Source: a bacterium (lineage in GTDB: Bacteria; Patescibacteriota; Patescibacteriia; Patescibacteriales; GWC2-42-12). Taken from it: DNA of 51,599 nucleotides. A program made the translations under genes and the position numbers. Positions 5,469 to 51,267 of this stretch are shown here, piece after piece (the first letter of the stretch is position 1; every line of letters starts with the position of its first letter). The stretch spans positions 1 through 51,599 of the forward strand of contig JAUSGE010000029.1 of the NCBI GenBank assembly GCA_030649205.1, written 5' to 3'. The notes beneath the pieces are model-generated. The model was not told the origin of the DNA. It did not search any database and saw only the letters and a program-made list of their open reading frames with translations.

Positions 5469-6920
5469 ATGGCCGAAGAAGTAATTTTGCGCTTTGATGA
5501 AGTAAATTTTGAGTATGAACATAATAAGCCCATCCTGGATGAGGCCAGCTTCAGCGTGCGCCGCGGCGCCAAAATTACTTTAATGGGGCAAAACGGCGCT
5601 GGCAAAAGCTCTTTATTTGCTTTAATCATGGGTGAATTACAGCCAAAATCAGGCCGCGTTTCTATTACTAACGGCGCCACTATCGCCACGGCCAGACAGG
5701 TCGTGGCGCGCGAAAATTTAGAGCTGACAATTGATGAATATTTTGCCGAGGCGTTTGAGCTGGCGCCAGGTAATCTAGCCAGCAGAATATCTAAAGTTTT
5801 AACCGCGGTGAATTTGGACGCGCCGATCAATAAGCGCGTCGGCGATCTGTCCGGCGGACAGCAAGCTCGTCTGCTCTTGGCTTTCGCCTTAATTCAGAAT
5901 CCAGACATACTTTTACTGGATGAACCGACTAACAATCTTGATCAGGCCGGCATTGATCATTTAATAGAATTTTTAGTTATGTACGATAAAACCGTAATTG
6001 TAATTTCGCATGACGCGGATTTTTTAAATTGTTTTACCGAAGGCGTGATCTATCTGGACGTGTTCACTCATAAAATTGAGACTTACGTCGGCGACTATTA
6101 TTCGGTGGTGGAAGAAATCGGCAAACGAATTGAGCGCGAGCAGAGGAAAAATGCCCAGCTAAAAAAACAGATTATAGACCGAAAAGAAAAAGTTAATTTT
6201 TTCGCCAACAAAGGCGGCAAAATGCGCAAACTGGCCAAAAAATTAAAGGATGAAACCGCCGAGCTGGAAGAAGAAATGATTGACGTCAGGCAGGAGGATA
6301 AAACTATCAGGGAATTTGATATTGAAGCGCAAGACATCACGGGCGAGATTGTTAAAATCAGCGCCGTGAAAATTATTCATCATCACGAGCCGATCATAAA
6401 AAAAGTTGATAAAATTATCCGCCAGCGCATGCATCTCCTGGTTACCGGGCCGAACGGCGTGGGCAAGAGCACATTTTTGCGCTCGCTGGTCGGCGGTAAA
6501 AACGAGCAGGCTCAAATTTTAGATAATGTCCGCGTCGGTTATTACAGCCAGGATTTTTCCAATCTTGATTTTAACCAAACGGTTTATGATTCGCTCTCCG
6601 GCGCCCTCGCCCGGGGCGCGGACACGCAAGCTATGCGCTCGGCCGCGGCCGGATTTCTCCTCCACGGCGATTTGATGGGCCGCCTGGTTAGCGAACTGTC
6701 TGAAGGGCAAAAGGGATTGTTGTCTTTCGCGCGCCTCAAACTGATGCGGCCCGGGCTGTTAATTTTAGACGAACCGACCAATCATATAAATTTTCGCCAT
6801 CTGCCCGTGATTGCCCAAGCGATTAACGGCTACGCTGGCGCCCTGATTATGGTCAGCCATATGCCGGAATTCGTCAAGCAGATAAAATTTGACGATTATT
6901 TGGATTTAGGCAAAATTTAA
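5469..6920 (+). CDS. ABC-F family ATPase (two ABC cassettes, no membrane domain)
   Basis: Walker A GQNGAGKSS and GPNGVGKST. Signature motifs LSGGQQARL and LSEGQKGLL. A charged K/E-rich linker lies between the cassettes. Confidence 0.85.
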   Translation: MAEEVILRFDEVNFEYEHNKPILDEASFSVRRGAKITLMGQNGAGKSSLFALIMGELQPKSGRVSITNGATIATARQVVARENLELTIDEYFAEAFELAPGNLASRISKVLTAVNLDAPINKRVGDLSGGQQARLLLAFALIQNPDILLLDEPTNNLDQAGIDHLIEFLVMYDKTVIVISHDADFLNCFTEGVIYLDVFTHKIETYVGDYYSVVEEIGKRIEREQRKNAQLKKQIIDRKEKVNFFANKGGKMRKLAKKLKDETAELEEEMIDVRQEDKTIREFDIEAQDITGEIVKISAVKIIHHHEPIIKKVDKIIRQRMHLLVTGPNGVGKSTFLRSLVGGKNEQAQILDNVRVGYYSQDFSNLDFNQTVYDSLSGALARGADTQAMRSAAAGFLLHGDLMGRLVSELSEGQKGLLSFARLKLMRPGLLILDEPTNHINFRHLPVIAQAINGYAGALIMVSHMPEFVKQIKFDDYLDLGKI

Positions 6921-6948
6921 ATCCCCCGCCAATTATGGCGGGGGATTT
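6919..6948. terminator. Bidirectional terminator hairpin between convergent genes
   Basis: aaatcccccgcc-aattat-ggcgggggattt sits exactly between the stops at 6920 (+) and 6959 (-). Confidence 0.75.
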
Positions 6949-6958
6949 AAATTAGAAA

Positions 6959-8770
6959 TTATTCTTCCTGATTGCCGCCTTGTTTTAAGAAGGCGTCAGG
7001 CAAATCTACTTTAACATTATAATTATTATTTGCTTTGATTTGCGGCTCCATATTGACCAAGCCGAATTCCTGCAAAGCATCCTGGATTTCTTGGCGAGTG
7101 TTAAAGGCTTCATCAATTTTGTCGGCCAGCTCATCGGCTCCGGCTTTTTCTTTCAGCATAGTTTGGATTTCGTCAAATTTGGCTTTTAAATTATTGACCA
7201 AATCCTGCAATTCGGCGATATCTATTTTTTTCTTGGCCAGCAATTTTATTTGAGAAGCGTACTTTTTCAGCTCGCTGTTGATGTTTTTCATGCCCTGGCT
7301 GATGTTTAAGACCACATCAATCTGCATCTGGGCATTTTTTAAATTATCCATGTTATTCCAAAAATCTTCTTCCAGTTTTTCCATGGCCGAATCCGGATCG
7401 GTTTTGGCCAAAGATTTGGCTTGGGCTAAAGCGTCTTTCAAGCCGTTCACCACATTTTTATATTCAGCCACCTGTTCGCTCAAATCAACTTTTTTATTGG
7501 CTTTGGCGCGCGATTCAATCTGCTTAACGCCGCGGTCCAAACTTTTTGACTGGCGGTCAGCTTCTTTTAGCATCTGGCACAGGCGGCTTAAATCGCCCAT
7601 GCGCGGACCCCAGTCCTGAATAACCGAACCGACATCCTGAACATCGCCCATAACTTCATCTAATTCATCCGCGGTTTTGGCGGCGTTAATTTTTGTTACC
7701 AGGTCGTCAGCCTGATTCAAGGCGCTGGTTAATTCTTCCGGCAAACCGACGCCGCATTTAGCGACTGAAGCTTTTACTCTTAACATGGCTTTTTTAGTCA
7801 TGGCCACGCCGCGGGAGAATTGAGAGATGCCGCGTTTCATGTCTTTAAAGCGGCGCTCATCCATTTTTTTCTGGTCTTCTTCGGATGGCCCTTGCTGCCG
7901 TCCCTGTCCCATTTGGCCGTCCTGGCCAGACGGGCCTTGATTATTGTATTTTTCACATGAGCCAGGCACTTCCACGCCGTTAATCCGGCAAGTTTGGCTG
8001 GCTCCTTGATCGCCTGAACTCGGCTGCATGGGCTGTTTATAAAATTGCATCTGATTCATGCCGTCTTGATTTTGCGGCTGTTGCGGCATCGGCGGTTGAA
8101 ATTTATCGCTATTGGTTGGCGGCATCGGCGGCTGTGGTTGAGAGGGCTGATTTTGATCGCCGCTAATCGGCGCGCTCGTATTATTGTCGGCCGGAGGAGG
8201 CGTTGACGGTTGCGGCTCGGTTGGCGCGGGCGCTGGTGTTGATTCAGGAGCTGGCGAGGGAGCAGGAGCAGGCACATCCGCCTCGGCAATTTTTACGCCC
8301 AGCACCTTAGCGGTACTCACCGGAACATAGGCATAAGTTATGTCCGTCTTTTTTGAAAAAGGATTTTCCTGGTAGCTAATGACCAGTTTATCTGAAACGG
8401 CCTTAGCGGAGACGGCGGCCGAAGAGGTTTTCCAGCCTTGGTTGGCTAAAATCTGGCGATAAAATCTGGCCACCGCGCCAGCCTTGGCGTTAACGCGATA
8501 ACGCACTAAATATTTACTATCAAAAGATAATCTTTTGGCTCCAGACATTAGAGGAACGTTAATATTAGCCAAAGATACTTTGCCGTTTTGCCAAACATCT
8601 GAACTTTGCCTGTCCAGCAGTGAATTTGCAATTGACAAAGAATTTATTAAACCGTTGTCCTTTTTGATTTCCTTCAGGAAAATCTGTTCAGACAACAACA
8701 CCGCGGTTACAATAATTAACAGCGCCGCGGGTAGAGAAACTTTTACCTGGAACATGTTTTTAATGGTCAT
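6959..8770 (-). CDS. Membrane-anchored/secreted protein with a P/Q-rich low-complexity block and a long C-terminal coiled coil (unknown function)
   Basis: 603-aa ORF. N-terminal hydrophobic anchor LPAALLIIVTAVLL. APAPSPAPESTPAPAPTEPQPSTPPP...QPQPPMPP block. The C-terminal ~300 aa show heptad-like K/E/D/L periodicity. Confidence 0.6.
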   Translation of the reverse strand: MTIKNMFQVKVSLPAALLIIVTAVLLSEQIFLKEIKKDNGLINSLSIANSLLDRQSSDVWQNGKVSLANINVPLMSGAKRLSFDSKYLVRYRVNAKAGAVARFYRQILANQGWKTSSAAVSAKAVSDKLVISYQENPFSKKTDITYAYVPVSTAKVLGVKIAEADVPAPAPSPAPESTPAPAPTEPQPSTPPPADNNTSAPISGDQNQPSQPQPPMPPTNSDKFQPPMPQQPQNQDGMNQMQFYKQPMQPSSGDQGASQTCRINGVEVPGSCEKYNNQGPSGQDGQMGQGRQQGPSEEDQKKMDERRFKDMKRGISQFSRGVAMTKKAMLRVKASVAKCGVGLPEELTSALNQADDLVTKINAAKTADELDEVMGDVQDVGSVIQDWGPRMGDLSRLCQMLKEADRQSKSLDRGVKQIESRAKANKKVDLSEQVAEYKNVVNGLKDALAQAKSLAKTDPDSAMEKLEEDFWNNMDNLKNAQMQIDVVLNISQGMKNINSELKKYASQIKLLAKKKIDIAELQDLVNNLKAKFDEIQTMLKEKAGADELADKIDEAFNTRQEIQDALQEFGLVNMEPQIKANNNYNVKVDLPDAFLKQGGNQEE

Positions 8771-8825: not shown

Positions 8826-9022
8826 GCATTCAATTAAAAAAACAGCCGCCAATGGGGCTGTAAGAGTCCTTAAATATATAAATTATTTGTTTTTTTAATG
8901 GGGAAGAAAAACATTTTATTTTTTATTTTTGTTTTTTGCTTGCTAAGGCTTTATGCTCTAACAAACTTTATAATTTCATTATAGCATGCCGCGAGTATTC
9001 TTTCAAGTGGATAACTCATTTT

Positions 9023-9097
9023 TGTCATTGCGAGCGACCGAAGGGAGCGCGGCAATCTCAAGTTTCTTCCGTCATCCCTGCGCAGGCAGGGATCAAG
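9023..9097. repeat. Family A half-element (tgtcattgcgag...gcaatctca) fused to a family B hairpin (gtcatccctgcgcaggcagggat)
   Basis: 9023-9060 is 36/36 identical to 37670-37705. 9071-9097 is a gtcatccctgc/gcagggat hairpin. Confidence 0.85.
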
Positions 9098-14496: not shown

Positions 14497-14541
14497 AATT
14501 TTGATTAATTATTTTACTTGATCATTATACCATATACTTTT

Positions 14542-14599
14542 TGTCATTGCGAGGGAGATTTTTCCGGTTGGCTCCATAGTCCCGCAGGGCTATGGAGCC
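14542..14599. repeat. Family A 5' end fused to a family C hairpin
   Basis: tgtcattgcgaggga... is followed by ggctccatagtcccgcagggctatggagcc. Confidence 0.8.
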
Positions 14600-16921: not shown

Positions 16922-17950
16922 ATGAATTTGAATAATTTAGAAAAAGCGTTGAGTGAAGAGCCAAAGTTCAGATTGAAACAGGCCAAACAAGCGATTTTTG
17001 TTGACTTAACAGATAACTGGGACAAAGCGACGATTTTTTCTTTGCCGTGGCGCGAAAAATTAAACCAAGACTGTCCGCTGGGAATTAAAGCGGAAATTTT
17101 TAAAAGCCATGATAAAAATTCTTTGAAGGCTTTGATTGATTTAGCTGACGGTCTAAAAATTGAAACCGTCTTGCTTAAGCATGCTGACGGACGTAACACA
17201 GTTTGCGTGTCGTCGCAGGTCGGCTGCGCGCTCGGCTGTTTGTTTTGCGCCACCGGAAAGATGGGCTTTAAAAGAAATTTAACAGTTGATGAAATTATTG
17301 AGCAGGTTTTGTTCTGGGCGCGGCAGTTAAAACATAACCCCCCAACCCCCCTTTCAAAGGGGGGCGCCGGAGGGTTAAACATTGTTTTCATGGGCATGGG
17401 CGAACCATTTTTAAATTATGATAACGTCCTGGCCGCGATTAAAATTTTAAACTCCGCGGATGGTTTAAACATCGGCGCCCGGCATATTTCCATTTCCTCG
17501 GTCGGCGTTAGCGACGGCATCAAAAAATTAGCCAAAGAAAACTTACAGCTTAACCTGGCGCTATCACTGCACGCGCCTTCAGATAACCTGCGCGCGGAAA
17601 TTATTCCTTATAACAGCGCCAACCCTCTAAAAAATTTAATTAAAGACCTAATCTATTATCTGAAGCAAACCGGTCGGCGCGTCATGATTGAATATTTAAT
17701 GATTGACGGCTTAAATGATTCGCCGGAGCAAGCGCTAAAATTAGCAGAACTTTTAAAAAATATTGATCCGCCGCTATTTTTCGTTAATTTAATTGCCTAT
17801 AATCCGACCGCTGACTTTAAGCCATCAACCCCGCGAGCAATCTTTGAATTTAAAAAAATCCTAAGAGATAAAAAAATTGACGTGACCGAGCGCTACCGCT
17901 TCGGCCAGGATATCAGCGCTGCCTGCGGACAATTGGTGGGGAAGCTTTAA
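16922..17950 (+). CDS. rlmN: 23S rRNA/tRNA (adenine-C2)-methyltransferase RlmN (radical SAM)
   Basis: CALGCLFCATG (CxxxCxxC), FMGMGEPFLNYDNV, and a C-terminal SAACGQL. It carries an in-frame palindromic repeat at 17335-17380. Confidence 0.9.
   Translation: MNLNNLEKALSEEPKFRLKQAKQAIFVDLTDNWDKATIFSLPWREKLNQDCPLGIKAEIFKSHDKNSLKALIDLADGLKIETVLLKHADGRNTVCVSSQVGCALGCLFCATGKMGFKRNLTVDEIIEQVLFWARQLKHNPPTPLSKGGAGGLNIVFMGMGEPFLNYDNVLAAIKILNSADGLNIGARHISISSVGVSDGIKKLAKENLQLNLALSLHAPSDNLRAEIIPYNSANPLKNLIKDLIYYLKQTGRRVMIEYLMIDGLNDSPEQALKLAELLKNIDPPLFFVNLIAYNPTADFKPSTPRAIFEFKKILRDKKIDVTERYRFGQDISAACGQLVGKL
17335..17380. repeat. Family E C-run/G-run palindrome located inside the rlmN reading frame
   Basis: aaccccccaacccccctttcaaaggggggcgccggagggttaaac encodes NPPTPLSKGGAGGLN. 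The same architecture occurs at 24995-25065, 30282-30315, 30633-30667 and 30747-30779. Confidence 0.85.
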
Positions 17951-18004: not shown

Positions 18005-19318
18005 ATGACAATAAACAATATCAAAACTAATCATAAAATAATACGAGGAGATTCAAGGCGGATGAAAGAATTGGCCAACGATTCTGTCCATTTAGTAATT
18101 ACATCGCCGCCATATTGGCAGCTAAAAGACTATGGTACTGAAAATCAAATTGGTTATCACGATAGTTATGAAAATTACATAAATAATCTAAATTTAGTTT
18201 GGCAAGAATGCTACCGGGTTTTAGAAAATGGCTGCCGTTTATGTATTAATATCGGAGATCAGTTTGCTCGTTCGGTTTATTATGGGCGATATAAGGTTAT
18301 ACCAATAAGAACAGAAATTATTAAATTTTGTGAAACTATTGGTTTTGATTATATGGGATCCATTATTTGGCAAAAATCTACCACCATGAACACGACAGGC
18401 GGAGCAACAATCATGGGATCATTTCCTTATCCTCGAAATGGGATCATTAAACTTGACTATGAATTTATTTTGATATTTAAGAAAAACGGGGAGCCACAAA
18501 AATTAAATAAAGAATTAAAAGAATTATCAAAACTAACCAAGGAAGAATGGAATTTATATTTTCAGGGGCACTGGCATTTTAACGGAGTAAGGCAAGATGA
18601 CCATATTGCAATGTTCCCCGAAGAATTGCCAAAAAGATTGATAAAAATGTTCTCTTTCGTCGGCGATACAATAGTTGATCCATTTGTGGGCAGTGGCACA
18701 ACATTATTGGCTGCAAAAAATTTAAGCCGAAATTCTGTTGGTTATGAAATAAATCCGAAATTTATAAATACAATCAAACAAAAATTAGAAGTTAACACTA
18801 ACAAAATGTTTGATAATTCAACTGCGAACTTTATAGATCAAGGCAATACAAAAAGTGATTACAGCGAAGAAATTTCCAAATTGCTTTATATTTTTAAAGA
18901 CCCTATTAAACTTGATAAAAAAATAGACCTAAAAAAATTACAATTTGGATCGAAAATAGATGATAGCAAGACACAAAGAATAGATTTTTTTACCGTAAAA
19001 GAAATAATAGATCCGAAAACGATTAAATTAAACAACGATTTAGTTGTTAAATTATTGGGTATAAAAATTAATCCTGAAAAAAGCGAGGACGCTAAAAAAT
19101 ATTTATTAAATAAAACCAACAAACAAAAAGTTTTTTTAAAATTTGATAACTTAAAATACGATAAAGAAAACAATTTATTGTGTTATTTATATTTACAAAA
19201 TAAAACTTTTATTAACGCTCATTTAATTAAAGAAGGATATGTTTTTGTCAATAATGAAATGGATTACAAATGTAAAGAAAAATTTATTAATTTATCTCAA
19301 AATAATTATGAAAAATAA
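18005..19318 (+). CDS. Type II DNA methyltransferase (beta-class N4-C/N6-A amino-MTase) fused to a C-terminal staphylococcal-nuclease-like OB domain
   Basis: Motif IV VITSPPYW lies near the N-terminus and motif I FVGSGTTLLAA downstream (PF01555-type order). The C-terminal LLGIKINPEK...CYLYLQNKTFINAHLIKEGYV is SNase-like. The region is clearly more AT-rich than its flanks. Confidence 0.8.
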   Translation: MTINNIKTNHKIIRGDSRRMKELANDSVHLVITSPPYWQLKDYGTENQIGYHDSYENYINNLNLVWQECYRVLENGCRLCINIGDQFARSVYYGRYKVIPIRTEIIKFCETIGFDYMGSIIWQKSTTMNTTGGATIMGSFPYPRNGIIKLDYEFILIFKKNGEPQKLNKELKELSKLTKEEWNLYFQGHWHFNGVRQDDHIAMFPEELPKRLIKMFSFVGDTIVDPFVGSGTTLLAAKNLSRNSVGYEINPKFINTIKQKLEVNTNKMFDNSTANFIDQGNTKSDYSEEISKLLYIFKDPIKLDKKIDLKKLQFGSKIDDSKTQRIDFFTVKEIIDPKTIKLNNDLVVKLLGIKINPEKSEDAKKYLLNKTNKQKVFLKFDNLKYDKENNLLCYLYLQNKTFINAHLIKEGYVFVNNEMDYKCKEKFINLSQNNYEK

Positions 19319-20006
19319 AACATCAAAGAAATTTTCAGCCGATTTCGGCAAAAAGGAAAAGGTGTTAAATTATGCTTGCCAAACTTATCAATTGTCCCGA
19401 CCCAATAAAGTCGGTGCGGTAATGGCATTAATAAGAGAATGCCAACCCAAGACAATAGACGAATGGGAAAAATGGTATTTTGAAAAAGCATTTACTGAAA
19501 GCAAGGAACCCATAAAGGTAACACAAGAAATTTTGAAAGAATTGGGCGAGCGCTTGCATGAAAAAATTACCGAGGTTGTCATACCAGAATGGCAAGCCGC
19601 TTTCATCGAATTATCGCTACAAGATTGCAAAGATTATATTTATAACCTGACAATAAATCGTACTTACGATGGTTTTATTCGTGAAAAATCTGTTGTCAAC
19701 GATGGATTAGCTAAACATTTTCCAGAAGTAAAATTTATTGAAAGCGACAACGACCTTGATCATGCTGGAGATATAGATTATTTAGGATTTGTAGACGAAA
19801 AAGCTTTCGGAATACAAATCAAACCGATTACTGCAAAAGCAAATTTTGGTAATTATTCCGTATCCGAAAGAATGAAAAGGAACTTTCTTGATTTTGAAAA
19901 AAAATATCAAGGCAAGGTATTTATTGTTTTTAGTTTAGACGGAGAGATTGGAAATAAAGAAGTTATAAAGGAGATTGAAACAGAAATAAAGAGACTAAAA
20001 AAATAA
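19308..20006 (+). CDS. Putative type II restriction endonuclease (PD-(D/E)xK-like), translationally coupled to the methyltransferase
   Basis: The ATG at 19308 overlaps the MTase stop (19316-19318) by 11 nt. HAGDIDYLGFVDEKAFGIQIKP fits D-x(n)-(E/Q)-x-K. The track ORF start at 19239 lies inside the MTase gene. Confidence 0.5.
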   Translation: MKNKTSKKFSADFGKKEKVLNYACQTYQLSRPNKVGAVMALIRECQPKTIDEWEKWYFEKAFTESKEPIKVTQEILKELGERLHEKITEVVIPEWQAAFIELSLQDCKDYIYNLTINRTYDGFIREKSVVNDGLAKHFPEVKFIESDNDLDHAGDIDYLGFVDEKAFGIQIKPITAKANFGNYSVSERMKRNFLDFEKKYQGKVFIVFSLDGEIGNKEVIKEIETEIKRLKK

Positions 20007-20013
20007 AGATTAT

Positions 20014-21033
20014 TTACAATTTTGTGACTAATTTAGTTATATCTTTAACACAGTTTATGCGGTAGGCCTCTTTAACCTGTACTCTCTGCCCCAATAAATC
20101 CAAACGACCGGAGGATAGTTTATAAAATGGGCAGCCCCTTGCAAATGCAACCACTCCGGTTGTCTGAAAATCTCTAATGTCAACCACACCATCTTTAAGG
20201 CCATTGAATGTAAATATGGCCCCTTGCGTAGTTAATAAAGATTCTATATCGCCATCAATCGCAGTTAATACGGTGTGATAAGCAGAAGCTGGCCCCATAT
20301 ATTGAGTGAGACGATTTTTTATAATTAAATGTACCTTAGGTAAAGTGCGTTGTGCTTCTTTCAACTTTTCAGCAAAGGCGTATTTTGCATAAATTTCTGA
20401 CGGCAATTTCAGGCCATAGATAAGCGAAAAAACATTTTGAATCGCTCTCCTAGACGAATCATCCGCCATCACCGGCAGAAGTAGCATTTCTGCTGATGAC
20501 AATGCAATTTGAGTATAAATAGAAAAGCTGGGGTTTGTATCAATAAAAATAACGTCGTACTTATCATTTAACGGTTTAATAAAATCGCTAAGCCAATCAA
20601 TGATTGAAATCCATGTGTTGGTGCCAGGAATTTGGTTATTTGCCAAAGTTGATATTGCATTAGCTTGAAGTTCTAATAACGGATCGCCGCACAAAAGATC
20701 AATATTTTTTGGTACCTGATCATTATATTGGAAGGGCTTTGTCAAAAAATCCTGTGGAACAAACGAAGGAGTACTATAAGGAGAAGGTAATCTTATCTGG
20801 AAATATCCACCGATAGTTGCTCTCACGGATTCGCCTTGACGTTTTAATAAATTATCACTACCTCCGTGATGCAATCCGCCTAAAAACAATTCGGAAAGAT
20901 TGGCCTGAGGACAGACATCAATCGATAGAACTCTTTCTTTTGGATGATTATCCGCATAAGTACATATTGTCTGAAAGGCAAGACTTGTTTTGCCCGTTCC
21001 CCCTTTATTATTCCAAAATACATACTTTTTCAT
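20014..21033 (-). CDS. ParA/MinD-superfamily P-loop ATPase (orphan; no ParB partner seen)
   Basis: Deviant Walker A NNKGGTGKTS at residues 8-17. Walker B-like VIFIDTNPS. 339 aa. It converges on the endonuclease gene with an 8-nt gap. Confidence 0.75.
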   Translation of the reverse strand: MKKYVFWNNKGGTGKTSLAFQTICTYADNHPKERVLSIDVCPQANLSELFLGGLHHGGSDNLLKRQGESVRATIGGYFQIRLPSPYSTPSFVPQDFLTKPFQYNDQVPKNIDLLCGDPLLELQANAISTLANNQIPGTNTWISIIDWLSDFIKPLNDKYDVIFIDTNPSFSIYTQIALSSAEMLLLPVMADDSSRRAIQNVFSLIYGLKLPSEIYAKYAFAEKLKEAQRTLPKVHLIIKNRLTQYMGPASAYHTVLTAIDGDIESLLTTQGAIFTFNGLKDGVVDIRDFQTTGVVAFARGCPFYKLSSGRLDLLGQRVQVKEAYRINCVKDITKLVTKL

Positions 21034-21227: not shown

Positions 21228-21500
21228 ATGTTTAAAAAAAATTTTACAACCGAAGCAGCTAAAAAAATCGGGGATGAGATTGGAATTGATTGGAATCAGA
21301 TGGACATAGAGCAGTTTAAACAGGGTTTGCATGTTGAACTGGAGCATGGCTTGCACGACGGCCAGACTAATGTGACTAACGATGACTTGATTACCACGGG
21401 TAAAATCGCCTGGGCGCATTTAAAAGAGTTCGCGGATTATTATACGCGGCTGAAAAAAATGGAAGACGAAGCCGAAGAATATTGGGAAAATAAAAATTGA
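21228..21500 (+). CDS. Small acidic protein (DUF5661-like from memory)
   Basis: 90-aa ORF. GLHVELEHGLHD...GKIAWAHLKEFADYY. A terminator follows. Confidence 0.5.
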   Translation: MFKKNFTTEAAKKIGDEIGIDWNQMDIEQFKQGLHVELEHGLHDGQTNVTNDDLITTGKIAWAHLKEFADYYTRLKKMEDEAEEYWENKN

Positions 21501-23002: not shown

Positions 23003-24994
23003 ATGACCCTAACAACCCTATTCATCATCGGCAGTGCCATTTTAGCCATTGCCTACGGCCTGATTTTAATCAGCCTGGTCATGCGCTTGCCGGCCGGCAA
23101 TGAAAAAATGCAAGCCATTGCCAAAGCTATTCAGGAAGGAGCCAAAGCTTATTTAAACCGCCAGTACAAAACTATCGCCGTCGCGGCCGCGATCATTTTT
23201 TTAATCATAGGTTTAATTCCCAAATTAGGCTGGTCTATGGCCGCGGCTTTTTTGCTGGGCTCGTTTTTGTCGGCCTTAACCGGCTATATCGGTATGAATG
23301 TCTCGGTGCGGGCCAATGTCCGTACTGCTGAAGCTGCCAGAGGCGGACTGGCCAAGGCTTTGAAAGTTGCGGTTCAAGGCGGCAATGTTACCGGCATGCT
23401 GGTGGTCGGCCTGGCGCTCTTGGGCACGGCCGGTTTTTATTTTATTACTCATGACATTCGCGCCTTAATCGGCCTGGGTTTCGGCGGTTCGCTGATTTCC
23501 ATTTTTGCGCGCTTGGGCGGCGGCATTTTTACCAAAGCCGCGGACGTAGGCGCTGATTTAGTGGGCAAAGTTGAGGCCGGCATTCCGGAAGACGACCCGC
23601 GCAACCCGGCCGTAATTGCCGATAACGTGGGCGACAATGTGGGCGACTGCGCCGGCATGGCCGCGGACCTGTTTGAAACTTACGTGGTCACTTGCGTTGC
23701 CACCATAATTTTAGGCACGCTATTATTCTCCGGTTTTCAAAACGCCGTGCTTTATCCTTTGGTCATCGGCGCGGTTTCCATTATAACATCAATTATCGGC
23801 AGTTTCTTTATTAAACTAGGCAAGAGCCAAAACATCATGAACGCCTTATATAAAGGTTTGATTGTGGCCGGAGTTCTGGCCGCGATTGCTTTTTATCCGG
23901 TTACCAGCCGGCTGATGGCGGGCAACGGCTCTTACAGCGTCATCAACTTATATTTAGCCTCGCTCATCGGACTGGCCGTGACCGCGGCCATGGTCGTGAT
24001 CACCGAATACTACACTTCAAAAAGCTACGCGCCGGTAAAGTCAATCGCTGAAGCATCGCGCACCGGCCATGGCACCAACATCATCGCCGGCCTGGCTGTT
24101 TCCATGAAATCCACGGTTTGGCCCATAGTGGCTATCGTAGCCGCGATTTTGGGCGCTTACAGCCTAGCCGGACTTTACGGCGTGGCCGTGGCCGTCATGG
24201 CCATGCTGTCCATGGCCGGCATCATTGTGACCATTGATTCTTACGGCCCGATTACGGATAACGCGGGCGGCATTGCCGAAATGGCGGAAATGGGCGACGA
24301 GGTGCGCGCCGTTACCGACCCGCTGGACGCGGTCGGCAATACCACCAAGGCCGTGACTAAAGGCTATGCCATCGGTTCAGCCGCCTTAGCGGCGCTGGTA
24401 CTGTTCGCCGATTACACGCACAGCCTGCCGGACACTTACCAATTTTTAATCAATGACCCCCGAGTTTTGGCCGGCCTATTTTTAGGCGGACTATTGCCGT
24501 ATTATTTCGGCGCCCTGGCCATGCAAGCCGTGGGCAAAACCGCGGGCGCGGTAGTGGATGAAGTGCGCCGCCAATTTAAGGAAAAGCCCGGCATCATGGC
24601 CGGCACGGACAAACCTGATTACGGCCGCACCGTGGACATTGTTACCAAAGCGGCCATTGCGCAAATGATTGTTCCGGCTTTAATTCCGGTAGCCGCGCCG
24701 ATTTTGGTGGGTTTTATTTTAGGCGTACAAGCCCTGGGCGGCTTATTGGTCGGCTCCATCATCACCGGAATTTTTGTGGCCATTTCCATGACCTCGGGCG
24801 GCGGCGCCTGGGACAACGCTAAAAAATATATTGAAGACGGCAATTTCGGCGGCAAGGGTTCGGACGCGCATAAAGCGGCCGTGACCGGCGACACGGTCGG
24901 CGATCCTTATAAAGATACGGCCGGCCCGGCCATAAACCCGATGATTAAGATCTTAAACATTGTGGCGTTATTGATAGTGGGGTTGCTGGTATAA
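23003..24994 (+). CDS. hppA: Membrane-integral proton/sodium-translocating pyrophosphatase
   Basis: [39 protein letters not shown], a C-terminal [21 protein letters not shown], and about 15 TM helices. Confidence 0.95.
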
Positions 24995-25365
24995 AACCCC
25001 CTTTAACAAAGGGGGTTAGGGGGATTTAATTTAATCCCCCTTGTAAAGGGGGATTAAGGGGGTTTTGTCATTGCGAGCGTTAGCGAAGCAGTCTCCGGTT
25101 TATTTTCGGTATCCTTACCATTACCCGTCATCCCTGCCCGTCTCGCGTCGGCGCGAGCCGAGGCGGGCGAAAGCAGGGATCCAGAAAGAATTGTCATTGC
25201 GAGGAGCGCCTTTAGCCCCCGACCCGATCGGGGGGACGAAGCAATCTCCGGTTAAATGGCATAATGCTCGGCTAGGGAAAATTATTTTTTAAATTTTCTA
25301 CCCGGCTTTAGCCGGAGTTAATCCAGCCTTTTGTCATGCCGGCCTTGAGCCGGCATCCAGGAGGG
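24995..25365. repeat. 370-nt intergenic block built entirely of nested palindromic units (families E, A, B, D)
   Basis: 24995-25065 holds two E units. A units lie at 25066-25098 and 25192-25254. 25127-25190 is a long B hairpin, 25298-25320 is a D unit, and 25331-25365 is gtcatgccggcc/ggccggcat. Confidence 0.85.
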
Positions 25366-29949: not shown

Positions 29950-30059
29950 CAGCAAAAATAGATATAAACAAAAAGCCACATTAACTTGTGGCTTTTTGTT
30001 TCTACTGTCATTCCCGTCCTTGTCATTCCCGCGAAAGCGGGAATCCATTTCCTTATTAT

Positions 30060-30758
30060 ATGACCTTCCACATCATCACAATTTTTCCTCACATCTTTGA
30101 CTCTTATTTTAACGAGTCAATTCTTAAGCGCGCGCTAACCAATAAATTGATCACTATAAAAATTCATAACCTGCGCGACTGGACAACGGACAAGCATCAA
30201 ACCGTGGACGACGCCCCGTTCGGCGGCGGCGCCGGCCTGGTCATGAAGATTGAACCATTATACAAAGCCCTGCGCGATATTACCCCCCTTGCAAAGGGGG
30301 GCAGGGGGGTTAAAACCATATTATTATCCGCTAAGGGCAAAACCTGGAACCAGCGCCTGGCAAAATCGCATAGCCAGCTTAAGAATATCATCCTAATCTG
30401 CGGCCGCTACGAAGGCGTGGATGAAAGAATCACAAAATTTATTGACGAAGAAATTTCCATCGGCGATTATATTTTAACCGGCGGCGAGATCGGCGCTCTG
30501 GCCATTATTGACTCCATCACCCGCCTTCTGCCCGGCGCTTTAGGCAACGCGGACAGCGCCAAATACGAATCGCACTCCACTGCCGGTGTTTTAGAACATC
30601 CGCATTACACCCGCCCGGAAATTTTTACCGCCACCCCCCTTATAAAGGGGGGCAGGGGGGTTAAATCCTACCGCGTTCCCAAAGTATTATTATCCGGTAA
30701 TCATAAAAAAATAGCCGACTGGCGCGCCAAAAAATCAAAGCGCCTTCACCCCCTTTAA
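30060..30758 (+). CDS. trmD: tRNA (guanine37-N1)-methyltransferase TrmD, carrying two in-frame repeat insertions
   Basis: The start is the ATG at 30060 (MTFHIITIFPHIF); the track start at 29988 lies in repeat DNA. Motifs: DDAPFGGGAGLVMK, ICGRYEGVDERI, ISIGDYILTGGE, LLSGNHKKIADWR. Repeats at 30282-30315 and 30633-30667 encode TPLAKGGRGVK and TPLIKGGRGVK. Confidence 0.9.
   Translation: MTFHIITIFPHIFDSYFNESILKRALTNKLITIKIHNLRDWTTDKHQTVDDAPFGGGAGLVMKIEPLYKALRDITPLAKGGRGVKTILLSAKGKTWNQRLAKSHSQLKNIILICGRYEGVDERITKFIDEEISIGDYILTGGEIGALAIIDSITRLLPGALGNADSAKYESHSTAGVLEHPHYTRPEIFTATPLIKGGRGVKSYRVPKVLLSGNHKKIADWRAKKSKRLHPL
30282..30315. repeat. Family E palindrome inside trmD (copy 1)
   Basis: accccccttgcaaaggggggcaggggggttaaaac. 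Confidence 0.85.
30633..30667. repeat. Family E palindrome inside trmD (copy 2)
   Basis: accccccttataaaggggggcaggggggttaaatc differs from copy 1 in the hairpin loop (gc versus at) and in the last 3 nt. Confidence 0.85.
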
Positions 30759-30947
30759 CAAAGGGGGTTAGGGGGATTTTTATCGTTTTTGGCTCCATAG
30801 TGCCGTCAGGCCTGTGGAGCCGTTTTGTTTATTTGTCATTCCCGCCCGTCTCGCGTCGGCGCGAGCCGAGGCGAGCGCAGGAGGGAATTCAAAAATTTAT
30901 TGTCATTGCGAGAAGCCTGTAATCAGGCGACGAAGCAATCTCACGAA
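30747..30947. repeat. Repeat cluster E + C + B + A after trmD; the E unit contains the trmD stop codon
   Basis: 30747-30779 caccccctttaacaaagggggttagggggattt (TAA at 30756-30758). Also 30791-30821 (C), 30836-30895 (long B hairpin) and 30901-30947 (A left half). Confidence 0.85.
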
Positions 30948-36659: not shown

Positions 36660-37661
36660 TTAATGAGCGAACAGCGTCCTCGCGTAATTCCAAACTTCCG
36701 GCCGCCCCTGGGACAGCTCCCAATACCACCACTCCACGCCCCAGAGGTAAAACTCTTTAAAGCCGGTTTGCCGCGCGAATTCAATCATGCCCTTAAATTT
36801 GCCTAAATTCATAGTCTGATCGCGCTCGGCCTGGGGCAAAGTCTGATAAGGCGCTTTGCCCCAGGGCTCGGCCTGCAATTCAATCACCAGCCAATCCTTG
36901 GGGCTGGCAAACAAGGAGGCTAAATTCTTTTTGAAACGAAAAAATCCCGGGCCAATGGGATAATGAATATAACTTTTAAAAAAACCGGAGTAAGTGTCGC
37001 GATACATAGTAGTGCCGAAAATGTCAGCCCGTCCGGCCGCGCCCAGCCAAAACGACAGTTCGCCTGAATCCGTAACTATAATCGGCCGGGAATCAAGGCT
37101 CTTAGCCAAAGCGATTTCCTGATCTAAAAATTGCTTGTCAAACTGCGGACAATCGCCAAAATGCGATAAAAACGGTTCATTTTCAATCTGCCAAGCCATG
37201 ATCTGCCGATTGCCTTTATAGCGCTCAAGCACTTGAGCCAAATAAGACAAAGTTTCACTTTCCACCTGCGCCTTCAGCCTGCCCTTGGTCCAATCCGGAA
37301 AATGGCACTCGGGCCAGCGCGGCAGCCGTCCGCCCACGGCTAAAATAATTTTGGCCTGGCGCTCGGAAGCCTGATTAATCTGCCAATCCAAGTCCTGCCA
37401 GGAATATTTTCCTTGTTCGCTTTCAATTTCATTCCAATAGGCCAGCAAACGGATTCTTTTTACCCCCAAATCATCAAAAATAGATAAATAAATTCTTTTC
37501 CAATCAAAGCCCAAACTGACCGCCTGTTTTTTAGAAAAAGTTACGCCATAACTCAATTCTTCTCTATTATAAACCTGCCCGCGGCTGAAAGAAAAAATAA
37601 AGAATAAAAACAACACTAAAATAAACAATAATATTTTAAGCCGATGAGCTCTTTTAAACAT
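36660..37661 (-). CDS. Secreted TIM-barrel glycoside hydrolase (clan GH-A; GH5/GH42-like)
   Basis: N-terminal signal/anchor. WNEIESEQGKYSWQDLDW. WQIENEPF (acid/base NEP). ELQAEPWG (candidate nucleophile). The stop codon abuts the IS right end. Confidence 0.6.
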   Translation of the reverse strand: MFKRAHRLKILLFILVLFLFFIFSFSRGQVYNREELSYGVTFSKKQAVSLGFDWKRIYLSIFDDLGVKRIRLLAYWNEIESEQGKYSWQDLDWQINQASERQAKIILAVGGRLPRWPECHFPDWTKGRLKAQVESETLSYLAQVLERYKGNRQIMAWQIENEPFLSHFGDCPQFDKQFLDQEIALAKSLDSRPIIVTDSGELSFWLGAAGRADIFGTTMYRDTYSGFFKSYIHYPIGPGFFRFKKNLASLFASPKDWLVIELQAEPWGKAPYQTLPQAERDQTMNLGKFKGMIEFARQTGFKEFYLWGVEWWYWELSQGRPEVWNYARTLFAH

Positions 37662-37669
37662 AAAACGTT

Positions 37670-37784
37670 TGTCATTGCGAGCGACCGAAGGGAGCGCGGC
37701 AATCTCACGGACAATTAATTTTAGAAAAAGTTCGATGTTTGTGAGATTGCTTCGTCGCCCGAGTACAGGCTCCTCGCAATGACA
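37670..37784. repeat. Full-length family A palindromic element (115 nt)
   Basis: tgtcattgcgagcgaccgaagggagcgcggcaatctcac ... gtgagattgcttcgtcgcccgagtacaggctcctcgcaatgaca. Confidence 0.9.
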
Positions 37785-37790: not shown

Positions 37791-38222
37791 CTAGGTCGGT
37801 ATAGTCCCGGTAGTCGCCCCAATCAATTGGTTGATGACAAAATTAGCCAGGGCAAAAGACGCTAAAATAATCACTAAGCCGATAACGCCGGCGATTAAAA
37901 TCTTCTTGGCCGCGGCCACATTTTCTTCATTGCCGCCGGCCGTCATCCAGCGAAAACCGGCGTAAAGAATTAATATAACCGCGATAATTCCCAAAAATCC
38001 CAGGGCAATATTGATTATCTTCACCGCCAGCAGGCGAGGATCATTATCGTTGACCCCGCCCAGAGGCCCGTTGTTGATCTCGTTGCGCACGCCGTTCCCC
38101 CAAATTTGATCCAAATTCGTGGCCGCCAAAATCGGCGCCGGCGAAGCAACGGCCAAGGCCCAGCCCAAAACCAATAAAATCATTGGCAGGGCAATAATCG
38201 TTTTATGCCTTTTTTTTCTCAT
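37791..38222 (-). CDS. VirB2/TrbC-like T4SS-pilin family protein
   Basis: Signal peptide, then YAGFRWMTAGGNEENVAAAKKILIAGVIGLVIILASFALANFV. Confidence 0.75.
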   Translation of the reverse strand: MRKKRHKTIIALPMILLVLGWALAVASPAPILAATNLDQIWGNGVRNEINNGPLGGVNDNDPRLLAVKIINIALGFLGIIAVILILYAGFRWMTAGGNEENVAAAKKILIAGVIGLVIILASFALANFVINQLIGATTGTIPT

Positions 38223-38251
38223 AATCTTAATTTTAAATATTAATTTATTTT

Positions 38252-38647
38252 TTATTCCATGCCAGTCGTGGCCTTAAAAATCTGGCTAATCACAAAATTA
38301 GCCAGCGCGTAGGAAGCTAAAATAATCACCAAGCCGATAACGCCGGCGATTAAAATCTTCTTGGCCGCGGCCACGTTTTCTTCATTGCCGCCGGCCGTCA
38401 TCCAGCGAAAACCGGCGTAAAGAATTAAAACCACGGCTATAACGCCTAAAAAGCCTAAAGCTATGTTAATAATGTCAATAATTGTGAACCTAATATCCCG
38501 CGGCGCGCCTGATTGGTAGGCCTGGCCAACCTGGTTCAATCCTCCGGTTTGAACTTTTTCCAAAATGGTTTCCGCTCTGGCCTGAAGCGGCAACCCGGAC
38601 AATAATATCATTGCCGCTAACGCAACAGCTAAGTTATGCTTAAGCAT
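38252..38647 (-). CDS. VirB2/TrbC-like T4SS-pilin family protein
   Basis: Signal peptide, then YAGFRWMTAGGNEENVAAAKKILIAGVIGLVIILASYALANFV. A 98-nt tract is 97/98 identical to the downstream paralog. Confidence 0.75.
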   Translation of the reverse strand: MLKHNLAVALAAMILLSGLPLQARAETILEKVQTGGLNQVGQAYQSGAPRDIRFTIIDIINIALGFLGVIAVVLILYAGFRWMTAGGNEENVAAAKKILIAGVIGLVIILASYALANFVISQIFKATTGME

Positions 38648-47456: not shown

Positions 47457-47499
47457 TGTCATTGCGAGGGAGCGCTAGCGACCGAAGCAATCTCACGAA
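47457..47499. repeat. Family A left half-element
   Basis: tgtcattgcgagggagcgctagcgaccgaagcaatctcacgaa. Confidence 0.85.
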
Positions 47500-47531
47500 T
47501 TAGTTGTCATAACAAAAAAGGAGGATTTATC

Positions 47532-48073: not shown

Positions 48074-48508
48074 TTAACTTCCGCCAACTATCGTTCCCGT
48101 ACTATTAACTCCCGATAAACTCTGAAACACGAAATAAGTGATGGCATAGGCGGCAAGAATAATGATCAGGCCGATGATCGCCCGCGTTAACGTATTTTTG
48201 GCTTTAGTAACCTTTTCATCATCGCCTTGCGCCGTCATCCAGTTATAACCGGCGTAAATGATTAACACTAAAAAAATTATGCCCAATAAACTTAAAAATA
48301 CGCTAACCACATCTTTGATCAAGTTTGGTAAATCGGCGGCCGGATCATTTACTGGAGTTCCCCAGCCGGTTGTTCCCGCGCTATCCAACTGGGTTTGTAA
48401 ATCATCCGCGGCGCTTGCTCGGCTAAACTGAACGGTGAAAACAAAACTAACAGCCATGGCCGCTATAAATAAAAAGCTAAAAATTAATTTTGTGTATGTT
48501 TTTATCAT
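48074..48508 (-). CDS. VirB2/TrbC-like T4SS-pilin family protein (array member 8, last in transcription order)
   Basis: The start is the ATG at 48508 (MIKTYTKLIF...); the track N-terminus MARLLRRDYAARNDK is repeat DNA. YAGYNWMTAQGDDEKVTKAKNTLTRAIIGLIIILAAYAITYFV. Confidence 0.75.
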   Translation of the reverse strand: MIKTYTKLIFSFLFIAAMAVSFVFTVQFSRASAADDLQTQLDSAGTTGWGTPVNDPAADLPNLIKDVVSVFLSLLGIIFLVLIIYAGYNWMTAQGDDEKVTKAKNTLTRAIIGLIIILAAYAITYFVFQSLSGVNSTGTIVGGS

Positions 48509-48519
48509 AACTTTACTTT

Positions 48520-48628
48520 TGTCATTGCGAGCCGCGTAATCGCGGCGAAGCAATCTCGCCAATAGCGTCTCTTGACCAAACTCGCCATCCGTTAGATTGC
48601 TTCGTCGCTGGCGCTCCTCGCAATGACA
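48520..48628. repeat. Full-length family A palindromic element (109 nt) between two pilin genes
   Basis: tgtcattgcgagccgcgtaatcgcggcgaagcaatctcgcc ... gattgcttcgtcgctggcgctcctcgcaatgaca. Confidence 0.9.
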
Positions 48629-48634
48629 TCAAAG

Positions 48635-49042
48635 TCATTGCAGAATGCCCGTGCCGGTAACCAGTTTATCAAACACCCAAGCGCTGATGGCATAGGCGGC
48701 CACAGTGATAATTATACCGATAATAGCGCGCGTCAGCGTGTCCTTGGCCTTGGTAACTTTTTCCTCATCGCCCTGCGCCGTCATCCAGTTATAGCCGGCA
48801 TAAATTACATAAATTAAAAATATCACGCCTAACAAGCCTAAAAACGCCTGGATAACCAAGCCGATGATACTGGCAATATCGTTTTCCCCCGGACTATACG
48901 CGGCATAAGGAGCAATACTGCCGCTTTCACCAGTATTTTTTAAATTTTCTAAAGCCGAGCTGTCGGCCGCGGCCAGATAAGGCGCGGCTATTAAAGCCAG
49001 CAATAGACTTGCCACAAAAATTTGTTTAATATTTTTTTTCAT
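48635..49042 (-). CDS. VirB2/TrbC-like T4SS-pilin family protein (array member 7)
   Basis: Signal peptide. YAGYNWMTAQGDEEKVTKAKDTLTRAIIGIIITVAAYAISAWV. Confidence 0.8.
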   Translation of the reverse strand: MKKNIKQIFVASLLLALIAAPYLAAADSSALENLKNTGESGSIAPYAAYSPGENDIASIIGLVIQAFLGLLGVIFLIYVIYAGYNWMTAQGDEEKVTKAKDTLTRAIIGIIITVAAYAISAWVFDKLVTGTGILQ

Positions 49043-49044
49043 AA

Positions 49045-49497
49045 TTATTCGAAGGCGGAGTTTAGATTTTCGGGATTGCTTCCGCCTTTTAAAGTTCCTT
49101 GCTCCAATTTGGACATGATAAAGACGCTGATGGCGTAAGCGGCGATAATAATAATCGCGCCGATAATCGCTCGGTTAAGCGTATCCTTGGCTTTAGTAAC
49201 TTTTTCCTCATCGCCTCGGGCCGTCATCCAGTTATAGCCGGCGTAGAGCATGTAAATTAACAGTATCACGCCGATTAAGCCTAAAAAAGCGCTGATGCCG
49301 ATTTGAATAACGGAAAAGAGAGTATTGCCAGTGCCGGTGTCATAACCTCCGGCATCGCCTGTTTTTTGCGCTTGATTATAAATATTTTGATTAACGTCCG
49401 GCTTTAGCGGTCCGGCGGCCGAACAAAAATTTACCGCGGCTAGCGAGAGGATGAACAAAATAATTACCAGGTTAATTTTTTTATGCTTACTAGACAT
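49045..49497 (-). CDS. VirB2/TrbC-like T4SS-pilin family protein (array member 6)
   Basis: Signal peptide. YAGYNWMTARGDEEKVTKAKDTLNRAIIGAIIIIAAYAISVFI. There is a 2-nt gap to the next gene. Confidence 0.8.
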   Translation of the reverse strand: MSSKHKKINLVIILFILSLAAVNFCSAAGPLKPDVNQNIYNQAQKTGDAGGYDTGTGNTLFSVIQIGISAFLGLIGVILLIYMLYAGYNWMTARGDEEKVTKAKDTLNRAIIGAIIIIAAYAISVFIMSKLEQGTLKGGSNPENLNSAFE

Positions 49498-49567
49498 AAT
49501 TATCGCGACCTATATGATTGATTAGTTAATCTTAATTTTTACTAAATTTCCTGTAGATTTGCGGGTG

Positions 49568-49942
49568 TTAAAACAATGCGCTGAAAATAAAAGCCCAGAT
49601 AGCGTAAGAGCCGATCACAATAATAATACCTATAATGGCGCGCGTCAGAGTATCCTTGGCCTTGGTAACTTTTTCTTCTTCGCCTCGGGCCGTCATCCAG
49701 TTATAGCCGGCGTAGAGCATGAGTATTAAAAATATCGTACCAATCAAGCCAAGAGCGCCCTGAACTACCGCGCCGATGACATTAGACAAGCCAATCTTAT
49801 CCACTGACTCATAAGGCCCGTTATTACTTCCAATATTTTGCAATTTATCCAAAGCGTCAAAGGCCCAGGCCGAATGCGGCAAACTAGCAATGGCCGTCAT
49901 CAGCCAAACAAACAAACTCGCATTTAGGTATTTTTTAGACAT
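49568..49942 (-). CDS. VirB2/TrbC-like T4SS-pilin family protein (array member 5)
   Basis: Signal peptide. YAGYNWMTARGEEEKVTKAKDTLTRAIIGIIIVIGSYAIWAFI. Confidence 0.8.
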   Translation of the reverse strand: MSKKYLNASLFVWLMTAIASLPHSAWAFDALDKLQNIGSNNGPYESVDKIGLSNVIGAVVQGALGLIGTIFLILMLYAGYNWMTARGEEEKVTKAKDTLTRAIIGIIIVIGSYAIWAFIFSALF

Positions 49943-49947
49943 GATTA

Positions 49948-50756: not shown

Positions 50757-50764
50757 AATTACTG

Positions 50765-51157: not shown

Positions 51158-51167
51158 AAACTCTATC

Positions 51168-51267
51168 TGTCATTGCGAGGAGGCCGTAATCGGCCGACGA
51201 AGCAATCTCACGTACTCGGAGCTTAATCAGAGATTGCTTCGCCCCGAGTACGGGGCCCGCAATGACA
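51168..51267. repeat. Full-length family A palindromic element (100 nt) between two pilin genes
   Basis: tgtcattgcgaggaggccgtaatcggccgacgaagcaatctcacgtactcgg ... gagattgcttcgccccgagtacggggcccgcaatgaca. Confidence 0.9.

Follow-up and report, generated by a model that had tools for sequence, protein, structure and literature searches.

An in-frame GC-rich palindrome in rlmN of a Patescibacteria contig, probably a copy of a dispersed mini-palindrome family

How does a GC-rich palindrome come to lie, in frame, within the coding sequence of a conserved RNA-modifying enzyme? The question is raised by rlmN, a radical S-adenosylmethionine (SAM) methyltransferase gene on contig JAUSGE010000029.1 (assembly GCA_030649205.1) of a Patescibacteria (candidate phyla radiation, CPR) bacterium, which we analyzed over its entire 51,599 nucleotides (hereafter the window; 42.7% G+C). 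Homologues of the gene product are named RlmN and carry PF04055, the product matches solved RlmN and Cfr structures with E-values of 5e-70 to 4e-51, and, of the catalytic cysteines, an alignment of 61 homologues shows no variation at C95, C102, C109 and C335 and hardly any at C106. A first-pass annotation, made from the letters of the sequence, had noticed a repeat at 17335-17380 that keeps the rlmN frame and had likened it to the insertions of Rickettsia palindromic elements (RPEs) in proteins. The presence and the frame of the element hold, the complete 342-aa open reading frame (ORF) being open, and its start coordinate had to be corrected (true span 17336-17380). The same annotation called rlmN essential, a description that does not apply in Escherichia coli, where the gene is dispensable; the essential gene at issue here is trmD, which carries copies of the element as well (see below). 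We conclude with high confidence that the rlmN segment belongs to a dispersed family of mini-palindromes and is tolerated, in frame, as a surface loop.

The peptide encoded by the element (NPPTPLSKGGAGGLN) directly precedes the IVFMGMGEP motif of RlmN. Within the DNA, an outer C6 run (17338-17343) is followed by an inner hairpin (C6-TTTCAAA-G6, 17346-17364), a cgcc spacer, a degenerate outer G-run (GGAGGG, 17369-17374) and a TTAAAC tail, and it is the extra upstream C6 that turns the copy into a nested palindrome (C6, aa, C6, TTTCAAA, G6, cgcc, GGAGGG). The copy fits the strict pattern of the family best on the minus strand, and its folding energy is -25 kcal/mol (z -2.5) on the plus strand and -31.9 kcal/mol (z -4.0) on the minus strand.

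This architecture is over-represented in the window, with 11 matches to a C5-N4-14-G5 hairpin pattern against 0.28 expected from shuffled sequence. A stricter pattern (C5-6, a TT..AA loop, G5-6, 2-5 nt and G5-6) retains six copies, the same six that an independent repeat grouping united in one 36-nt family (D4), and allowing up to two substitutions uncovered no degenerate copies in the window besides them. The element is 27-45 nt long, corresponding to peptides of 9-15 residues, and its six copies occur about once per 8.6 kb; three lie wholly within reading frames and a fourth runs across the end of a gene. They comprise one nested single unit (in rlmN), one tandem direct pair and single half units, and on this view the rlmN copy represents an outer stem around a single inner hairpin and the other five copies represent half units. 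Outside rlmN, two copies follow the H+-pyrophosphatase gene and three lie in or at trmD, and the motif is present in related genomes too; the intergenic segments with which the rlmN element had originally been compared (24995-25065 and 30747-30779) are indeed members of the six-copy family. A copy is found at the corresponding spot after the H+-pyrophosphatase gene in the relative L001, and L081 and L430 have none there. A further hairpin, ATCCCCCGCCAATTATGGCGGGGGAT, lies at 6921-6946 between the convergent ORFs 5469-6920 (plus strand) and 6959-8770 (minus strand), with the ATCCCCC/GGGGGAT ends of the GC-run family and a different interior.

Is the rlmN segment an insertion or simply part of the protein? 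In a protein alignment of the 120 closest RlmN homologues, most display a short linker, LK-xx-xxRV-xN-(L/I)VFMGMGEP, at this position, and the linkers of the closest relatives are 8-9 residues shorter than that of the window protein. For example, the site is empty (LK-SRDERVT-N) in P0004, which is 79% identical and encoded on a syntenic 105-141 kb contig. Conversely, NPPxPL..GG inserts occur at the same point in the window protein and in P0002, P0003, P0020, P0026, P0030, P0039, P0052 and P0072, and in the four filled rlmN genes that were read at the DNA level (4/4) the insert has the C-run/C-run/loop/G-run structure. In a quick neighbour-joining tree, from which the linker columns had been left out, filled sites are scattered among empty ones. 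The opposing explanation, that the peptide belongs to the RlmN linker by ancestry or as a trait of the lineage and resembles the intergenic repeats by chance or through convergence, has in its favor that the length of the connection between helix α1 and strand β2 varies across RlmN proteins. The linker of E. coli RlmN is just four residues shorter than that of the window, so linker length alone is no evidence. Against an ancestral linker speak the shorter linkers of the closest relatives, with filled and empty sites interspersed, and the insert DNA itself, a near-perfect family member with a nested C6/G6 palindrome (z -4.0 on the minus strand). Moreover, intergenic copies show this DNA with stop codons in it, and unrelated proteins have the same block inserted. 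Orthologues without the repeat are also without the peptide, as expected from the first-pass annotation if the segment is an insertion, and we consider the ancestral linker to be effectively refuted already.

Other lineages carry unrelated repeat-derived peptides at the same RlmN linker (P0051, P0067, P0074, P0029, P0053 and P0103), including YPVKS..AEFNRV, NPLKFPFERGAGGLNF and SPFEKGGLRGI, and in P0020, P0030 and P0072 extra material is nested within the hairpin loop of the NPP..GG insert. Since unrelated repeat types occupy this linker in other lineages, it appears to be a permissive landing site or hotspot.

In an AlphaFold2 model of the window RlmN (mean predicted local distance difference test score, pLDDT, 86.5; predicted template modelling score 0.86), the insert forms a low-confidence coil between the helix 122-137 and the strand 152-157, with residues 142-148 below a pLDDT of 50, consistent with the surface-loop-like position that had been suggested for it. 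Compared to solved structures, the window linker is longer by eight residues than that of RlmN 6fz6 and by 11 than that of Cfr, versus four for E. coli RlmN. On the basis of radical-SAM barrel topology, the α1-β2 connection would be located at the N-terminal strand end, away from the cluster and the SAM site.

Further support comes from trmD, where two in-frame copies and a third one that overlaps the end of the gene had been overlooked in the first-pass annotation (Table 1). The two in-frame copies are 33 nt each, follow the pattern ACCCCCCTTnnAAAGGGGGGCAGGGGGGTTAAA and are identical to one another at 31 of 33 positions. The third supplies the last residues of the protein (..HPL*), because the TAA in its loop is the trmD stop codon; the trmD genes of relatives end differently. 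As in rlmN, the sites can be found empty: site 1 in L086/P0148 (IKSKSQKSK) and site 2 in P0148 (IANGKKLTVPK), a protein whose gene shares a contig with that of P0004. Against the solved TrmD structure 5wyq, copy 2 amounts to 12 additional residues. In a set of 120 homologues, each of the two loops is polymorphic for presence and absence and comes in a number of subtypes (PFNKGGKGD[LF]K, PLIKGVRGIK, SPLIRGARGV and decayed forms), and a metagenome scan with the subtype of the window added three contigs that carry it in frame at TrmD site 2. The genuine trmD start codon is the ATG at 30060; a mechanically called ORF begins at the GTG at 29988 and continues across a hairpin repeat that precedes the gene, ATTCCCGCGAAAGCGGGAAT (30025-30044), which it reads as ..CHSRESGNP...

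Filled and empty alleles can also be compared between close relatives. L430 (P0039) and L431 (P0077), whose RlmN proteins are 92.5% identical (86.6% at the DNA level), differ by KN[NPPGPLYQGGD] versus KKQS, a net gain of 27 nt, and no target duplication is visible at this rlmN site or in other filled/empty pairs. About 41 kb of syntenic DNA from the empty-site genome of P0004 (L081, L086) contain no copy of the element, and 17 kb of L001, whose RlmN is 70% identical to that of the window, contain three. The window copy itself is not recent: it has its 5' junction and loop in common with the orthologue P0002 (80% amino acid identity), and its 3' side has been remodelled since.

These comparisons also bear on the route of arrival. 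The rlmN copy might have come by homologous recombination or gene conversion, from the allele of another lineage or from a copy within the genome, and the family might have been spread or homogenised mainly in this way. P0039, from a clade with a KxxKQINN linker, shares the element subtype and the flanking GDRV codons with P0003 from another clade: L430:10418-10443 and L084:824-849 have the same loop, TTGATAAA, and the same flanking GAT-AGR-GT, and the nearest relatives of each protein are empty at the RlmN site. The two are more alike close to the site than elsewhere, ENA sample ERZ27249422 contains both, and short-patch transfer between these co-resident lineages is possible. The near-identity of the two trmD copies in the window and the presence of another subtype at the orthologous site 2 of L087 are what gene conversion might leave behind, and recombination could similarly account for the stronger conservation of the element than of the gene around it, with 28 of 30 positions identical between the window and L083 copies against 78% gene-wide. 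However, the local rise in identity is modest and partly overlaps conserved motifs, and patch transfer covers movement from allele to allele but not arrival at dozens of unrelated genes and intergenic sites. We deem it unlikely that recombination is the principal explanation.

To what extent is in-frame insertion general among Patescibacteria? Within GTDB representative genomes, the exact subtype CCCCCTTTAACAAAGGGGGNNNGGGGGATT, whose 27 specified bases are expected by arithmetic to yield practically no chance matches, was found in 102 stretches, with many Patescibacteria metagenome-assembled genomes represented by several contigs each. A context census of 155 copies from element-rich loci, mostly of Patescibacteria, placed 33 (~21%) within long open frames (flanked on either side by 60 codons or more), 20 at gene 3' ends, 49 at most 40 nt upstream of a start codon and 53 in other contexts. 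Ten host ORFs were confirmed with Pfam: a UvrD/PD-(D/E)XK helicase, UvrC, a GatA-type amidase, QueA, PrmC, a MiaB-like enzyme, Dus, CysS, RecG and TsaD. The in-ORF copies are inserted in both orientations (13 forward, 20 reverse) and are read as PFNKGG.GD or PPLTKG in the forward and as IP.xPFVKGG or SPxPPLLKG in the reverse direction. Four of the six frames of the commonest subtype (loop TTTAACAAA) lack stop codons, and the two TAA-containing frames are absent among the in-ORF copies, as selection would predict.

Copies can also accumulate within a single frame: three are stacked within ~130 nt of one large ORF (L433:4079-4212), read as ..NSPNPLYQGGKNTNPPAPLSKGGGEGLNPRLEGGQIQPPLPPLSGG.., and the arrangement recurs in four metagenome contigs (L433 as well as L434, L437 and L442). 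As the copies stack in ORFs of this type, the element is able to build longer Pro/Gly-rich segments. In addition, many intergenic copies have a G-run 5-15 nt upstream of the first start of the next ORF, at a rate of ~8-9% of copies compared to 1.8% of random positions, an enrichment of about five-fold that is overstated because the control positions included coding ones. These start-proximal copies occur in either orientation (loci L209-L309, e.g. L142:924, L215, L225, L266 and L281), and the element may supply or occlude a Shine-Dalgarno-like site there.

The architecture extends beyond the CPR. A looser pattern, with 19 specified bases, matched at least 120 loci from cyanobacteria, Desulfobacterota, Nitrospirota, Omnitrophota, proteobacteria, Chloroflexota and others, although by arithmetic ~70 chance matches are expected in the 596 Gb searched. 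We do not attribute these matches to chance, since an AT that the pattern leaves unspecified follows the second G-run in 144 of the 174 matches listed, since many loci hold multiple copies and since isolate genomes are included. The flanks take the form (A)ATCCCCC / GGGGGAT(T). The 27-base subtype itself is found in Acinetobacter and Deltaproteobacteria besides CPR, and an exact 30-nt subtype occupies one conserved locus, the murC-ddl spacer, in four Acinetobacter species (L209:5247-5276 of sp. Ac_5812 and the corresponding locus in L218, L240 and L243; the gene names are our reading of the ORF translations). There, the murC-like ORF takes its final codons (..KSP) and its stop from the copy, which adjoins another hairpin, CCTCCCTTTTCAAAGGGAGG, ahead of the ddl-like ORF. 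The motif is common in IMG/VR viral contigs of 34-72% G+C, too, and many copies of the architecture exist in Nostoc and Calothrix. Nostoc, Microcoleus and one viral contig contain inverted doublets (GATC6, N2-3, hairpin, spacer, hairpin, N2-3, G6ATC) that fold as a single long structure (z -3 to -8). A BLAST search of a plasmid collection returned five weak cyanobacterial matches with uninformative annotation.

Such conservation could be expected if the hairpin were a functional cis-element, be it a protein-binding site, an uptake-type signal or an RNA hairpin acting as terminator, in RNA stability or at Shine-Dalgarno sites. Selection together with recombination would then have spread and preserved it, and the in-gene copies would be by-products that can by chance be read through. 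The motif is kept across phyla down to the AT after the second G-run, the 27-base subtype recurs in three groups, and the Acinetobacter murC-ddl spacer retains its copy in four species. In line with this idea are also the intergenic copies right after stops, which were flagged as weak terminator-like sites, the enrichment of G-runs ahead of first starts, and the greater conservation of the rlmN hairpin relative to the gene around it. On the other hand, no Rfam family matches: a search of the entire window at gathering thresholds and of 24940-25120 at permissive E-values gave only sub-threshold noise. A proper U-tract is missing after the main stem, the copies lie in both orientations relative to genes, and the start-codon enrichment is overstated for the reason given above. 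As for uptake signals, these are species-specific and built by point mutation, and are neither 27-nt blocks nor shared across phyla; the density in the window is also well below the ~1 per kb of known signals. We specifically considered a terminator as a general explanation and rejected it, because in-frame copies have no T-tracts; the copies at 24997, 25036 and 30749 were flagged as terminators only through weaker alternative stems. Taken together, we regard a cis-acting function as the origin of the family as quite improbable.

We thus return to the reading of the rlmN segment as an in-frame copy of a dispersed family and propose how it could have arisen. The repeat is built on an inner hairpin, C5-6 TT(T)-loop-(A)AA G5-6, which is bordered by outer runs, (AT)C5-6 and G5-6(AT); one or both of these are present, and they are able to pair with each other. 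One copy probably entered the codons of the linker between helix α1 and strand β2 of RlmN, where it is now translated. Inserted into a gene, the element would always read as a flexible Pro...Lys/Arg-Gly-Gly turn, and selection would retain only in-frame copies in permissive surface loops. The copies are presumably tolerated because C-runs specify Pro and G-runs specify Gly in every frame and because four of the six frames of the commonest subtype are open. Elsewhere, the same family has given rise to the protein loops and the stop codon of trmD, and further copies lie after genes or a few bases upstream of starts. Mobilisation in trans by an enzyme that recognises single-stranded hairpins, of the RAYT (REP-associated tyrosine transposase, REP standing for repetitive extragenic palindrome) or IS200 (HUH) type, is a possible though not a probable route; it is suggested by the hairpin with its conserved flank, by the absence of a target duplication, by clean empty sites and by doublets elsewhere that resemble REPINs (paired, inverted REPs). 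The main alternative would be that homologous recombination transfers short patches, or that copies and alleles convert one another.

Several points weigh against this scheme. First, a tblastn search of ~3-4 Mb of loci with an approximate IS608-TnpA query sequence, a weak test, yielded no match. Second, a shallow search for a transposase between inverted element pairs encountered none, the ORFs being ordinary (e.g. NUDIX-like). Third, the better conservation of the rlmN hairpin than of the surrounding gene could mean that the hairpin has a role as DNA or RNA and is not purely selfish. Fourth, the recurrent insertions of different RlmN clades agree in linker, orientation and frame, which could reflect target specificity or patch recombination between lineages instead of independent transposition, and the number of independent gains is only approximate because the tree is a quick neighbour-joining one. 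Finally, the proposed tolerance of the insert derives from the conserved catalytic residues and from the persistence of the insert.

Between rlmN and the DUF5661 gene (21228-21500) lies a three-gene island (18005-21033; Table 1) that is missing from the syntenic L081, L084 and L430 and looks like a recently acquired restriction-modification module. Other repeat families share the same intergenic regions as the GC-run element, among them repeats of the form TGTCATTGCGAG-(hairpin)-GACGAAGCAATCTC (families D6, D12, D16, D17 and D20) as well as a 61-nt repeat, GTCATYCCYGCCCGTCTCGCGTCGGCGCGAGCCGAGGCG.. (family D11, at 25127 and 30835). These other repeats are located at 25067-25260, 30835-30945, 9003-9037, 14522-14556, 37650-37730, 47483-47517, 48546-48580 and 51168-51232, and TGTCATTGCGAG repeats also follow trmD in the relatives L086-L088. 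Minus-strand arrays of paralogous small genes (families D1-D3, ~400-550 bp spacing) occupy 37807-38473 and 48133-51592; counterparts of these genes in syntenic relatives carry PF18895 (T4SS_pilin).

Table 1. Positions of rlmN, trmD, the copies of the GC-run element and the island genes in the window.
Feature	Position	Strand	Remarks
rlmN, 23S rRNA/tRNA adenine-C2 methyltransferase (radical SAM), 342 aa	16922..17950	+	host gene
In-frame palindromic element aaCCCCCCaaCCCCCCtttcaaaGGGGGGcgccGGAGGGttaaac	17336..17380	unassigned	encodes residues N139-N153, NPPTPLSKGGAGGLN
N6/N4 DNA methylase with SNase-like tail	18005-19318		island
MjaI-like restriction endonuclease	19239-20006		island
ParA-like ATPase	20014-21033	-	island
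Intergenic copy	24997..25027	+	3 nt past stop of H+-pyrophosphatase gene 23003-24994 (PF03030)
Second intergenic copy ATCCCCCTTGTAAAGGGGGATTAAGGGGGTTTT	25034..25066	+	tandem with copy 24997..25027
trmD, tRNA (m1G37) methyltransferase, 232 aa	30060..30758	+	PF01746 (homologue P0121); solved TrmD structures, E 3e-58
trmD in-frame copy 1 ACCCCCCTTGCAAAGGGGGGCAGGGGGGTTAAA	30282..30314	+	encodes TPLAKGGRGVK
trmD in-frame copy 2 ACCCCCCTTATAAAGGGGGGCAGGGGGGTTAAA	30633..30665	+	encodes TPLIKGGRGVK
Copy across trmD 3' end CCCCCTTTAACAAAGGGGGTTAGGGGGATTT	30749..30779	+	loop TAA 30756-30758

What follows from these insertions? The genomes in question are small and streamlined, yet they harbor a selfish-looking repeat in core translation and repair genes (RlmN, TrmD, CysS, TsaD, GatA, UvrC and RecG). 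The element accounts for many puzzling short indels in CPR alignments, such as "PL.KGG.G", "PFNKGGKGD" and "IPLTPFVKGG", with consequences for orthologue alignment, phylogenomic trimming and structure prediction. Repeats also cause gene-calling artefacts, as exemplified by the false N-terminal extension of trmD (due to a different repeat) and by the trmD stop that a GC-run element supplies. The colonisation of proteins in frame is not peculiar to Rickettsia, an element of ~30 nt suffices for it, and the Pro/Gly coding of C- and G-runs offers a simple reason for its tolerance.

More speculatively, all of these copies could belong to a single cross-phylum mini-palindrome family of which the rlmN insert is the CPR member, a joint proposal that we advance tentatively and with more doubt than conviction. 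Its members would share an outer ATC5-6/G5-6AT stem around one or two C5-6TT..AAG5-6 hairpins, would range over Patescibacteria, cyanobacteria, Desulfobacterota, Nitrospirota, Acinetobacter and (pro)viral contigs, and would be moved by an enzyme or vector so far unrecognised. Through the Pro/Gly coding bias they would repeatedly create protein loops, stop codons and Shine-Dalgarno-like sites and would, across conserved bacterial proteins in general, give rise to small indels. If the cross-phylum motif does represent one family, it would be a tractable case for studying how very small repeats move and cross phyla, and the cross-phylum conservation is likely the part of greater novelty.

How does the element compare to known small repeats? 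Literature searches on palindromic or in-frame elements or REPs in Patescibacteria/CPR, and on the motif and peptide strings, found no description, and the in-frame repeat is therefore apparently undescribed for CPR, as had been surmised at the outset. Among known systems, the small dispersed repeats (SDRs) of Nostocaceae have been termed 'very small mobile repeated elements' (Elhai et al. 2008, cited in PMC5861425). The GC-run element is similar to them, by description alone, in its tiny size, its hairpin and its insertion in genes, and together with REP/REPIN hairpins they would be structurally closest to it. SDRs are reportedly ~21-27 nt long and hairpin-forming, have properties of mobile DNA, lie within conserved genes and are confined to Nostocaceae, and in-frame spread through CPR housekeeping proteins is said not to be part of their description. 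DNA uptake sequences (USS/DUS) of Pasteurellaceae and Neisseriaceae have lineage-specific cores of 9-12 bp, occur about once per kb and arise by substitution. Like the GC-run element, they are over-represented short motifs that often form inverted pairs after genes and, within genes, prefer certain frames in poorly conserved peptides; unlike them, the GC-run element comes as a block of +27 nt, crosses phyla and is sparser. It also differs from miniature inverted-repeat transposable elements in that no target-site duplication is visible and in that the window copies are below 50 bp, versus 50-500 bp.

The RPEs of Rickettsia (Ogata et al. 2000 and 2002, as summarised in PMC10969869) are likewise a family of palindromic repeats inserted in frame in unrelated housekeeping genes, where they are read as extra peptides compatible with the fold, and they are present in some orthologues and absent from others. 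The initial analogy to RPEs holds at the functional level, given the in-frame copies in rlmN, trmD and the ten Pfam-confirmed housekeeping genes. However, RPEs measure ~100-150 bp (30-50 residues), whereas the GC-run element, at 27-45 nt (9-15 residues), is 3-5 times shorter, and RPEs are, in the account of that summary, found only in Rickettsia, whereas the GC-run architecture is present in many phyla. No kinship in sequence between the two is expected. REPs and REPINs, which are mobilised by RAYT (TnpA_REP) transposases (Bertels & Rainey 2011, PMC3116915; Quentin et al. 2018, PMC6006769), resemble the GC-run element in being imperfect palindromes of 20-40 nt with a conserved flanking motif and many dispersed copies, often just after genes, in forming inverted doublets that fold into long hairpins (in the case of the GC-run element, in other phyla) and in showing no visible target-site duplication. 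They differ in that REPs are extragenic by definition, whereas three of the six window copies and ~21% of those in the wider sample lie in reading frames, in that the flank is GTAG in REPs but (AT)CCCCC / GGGGG(AT) here, and in that known REP families are lineage-specific but the GC-run motif crosses phyla; moreover, the shallow search with the approximate IS608-TnpA query found no RAYT gene near any copy. By description, then, the likeness of the GC-run element to RPEs is a functional one, and its nearest structural analogue would be a hairpin of the REP/REPIN type.

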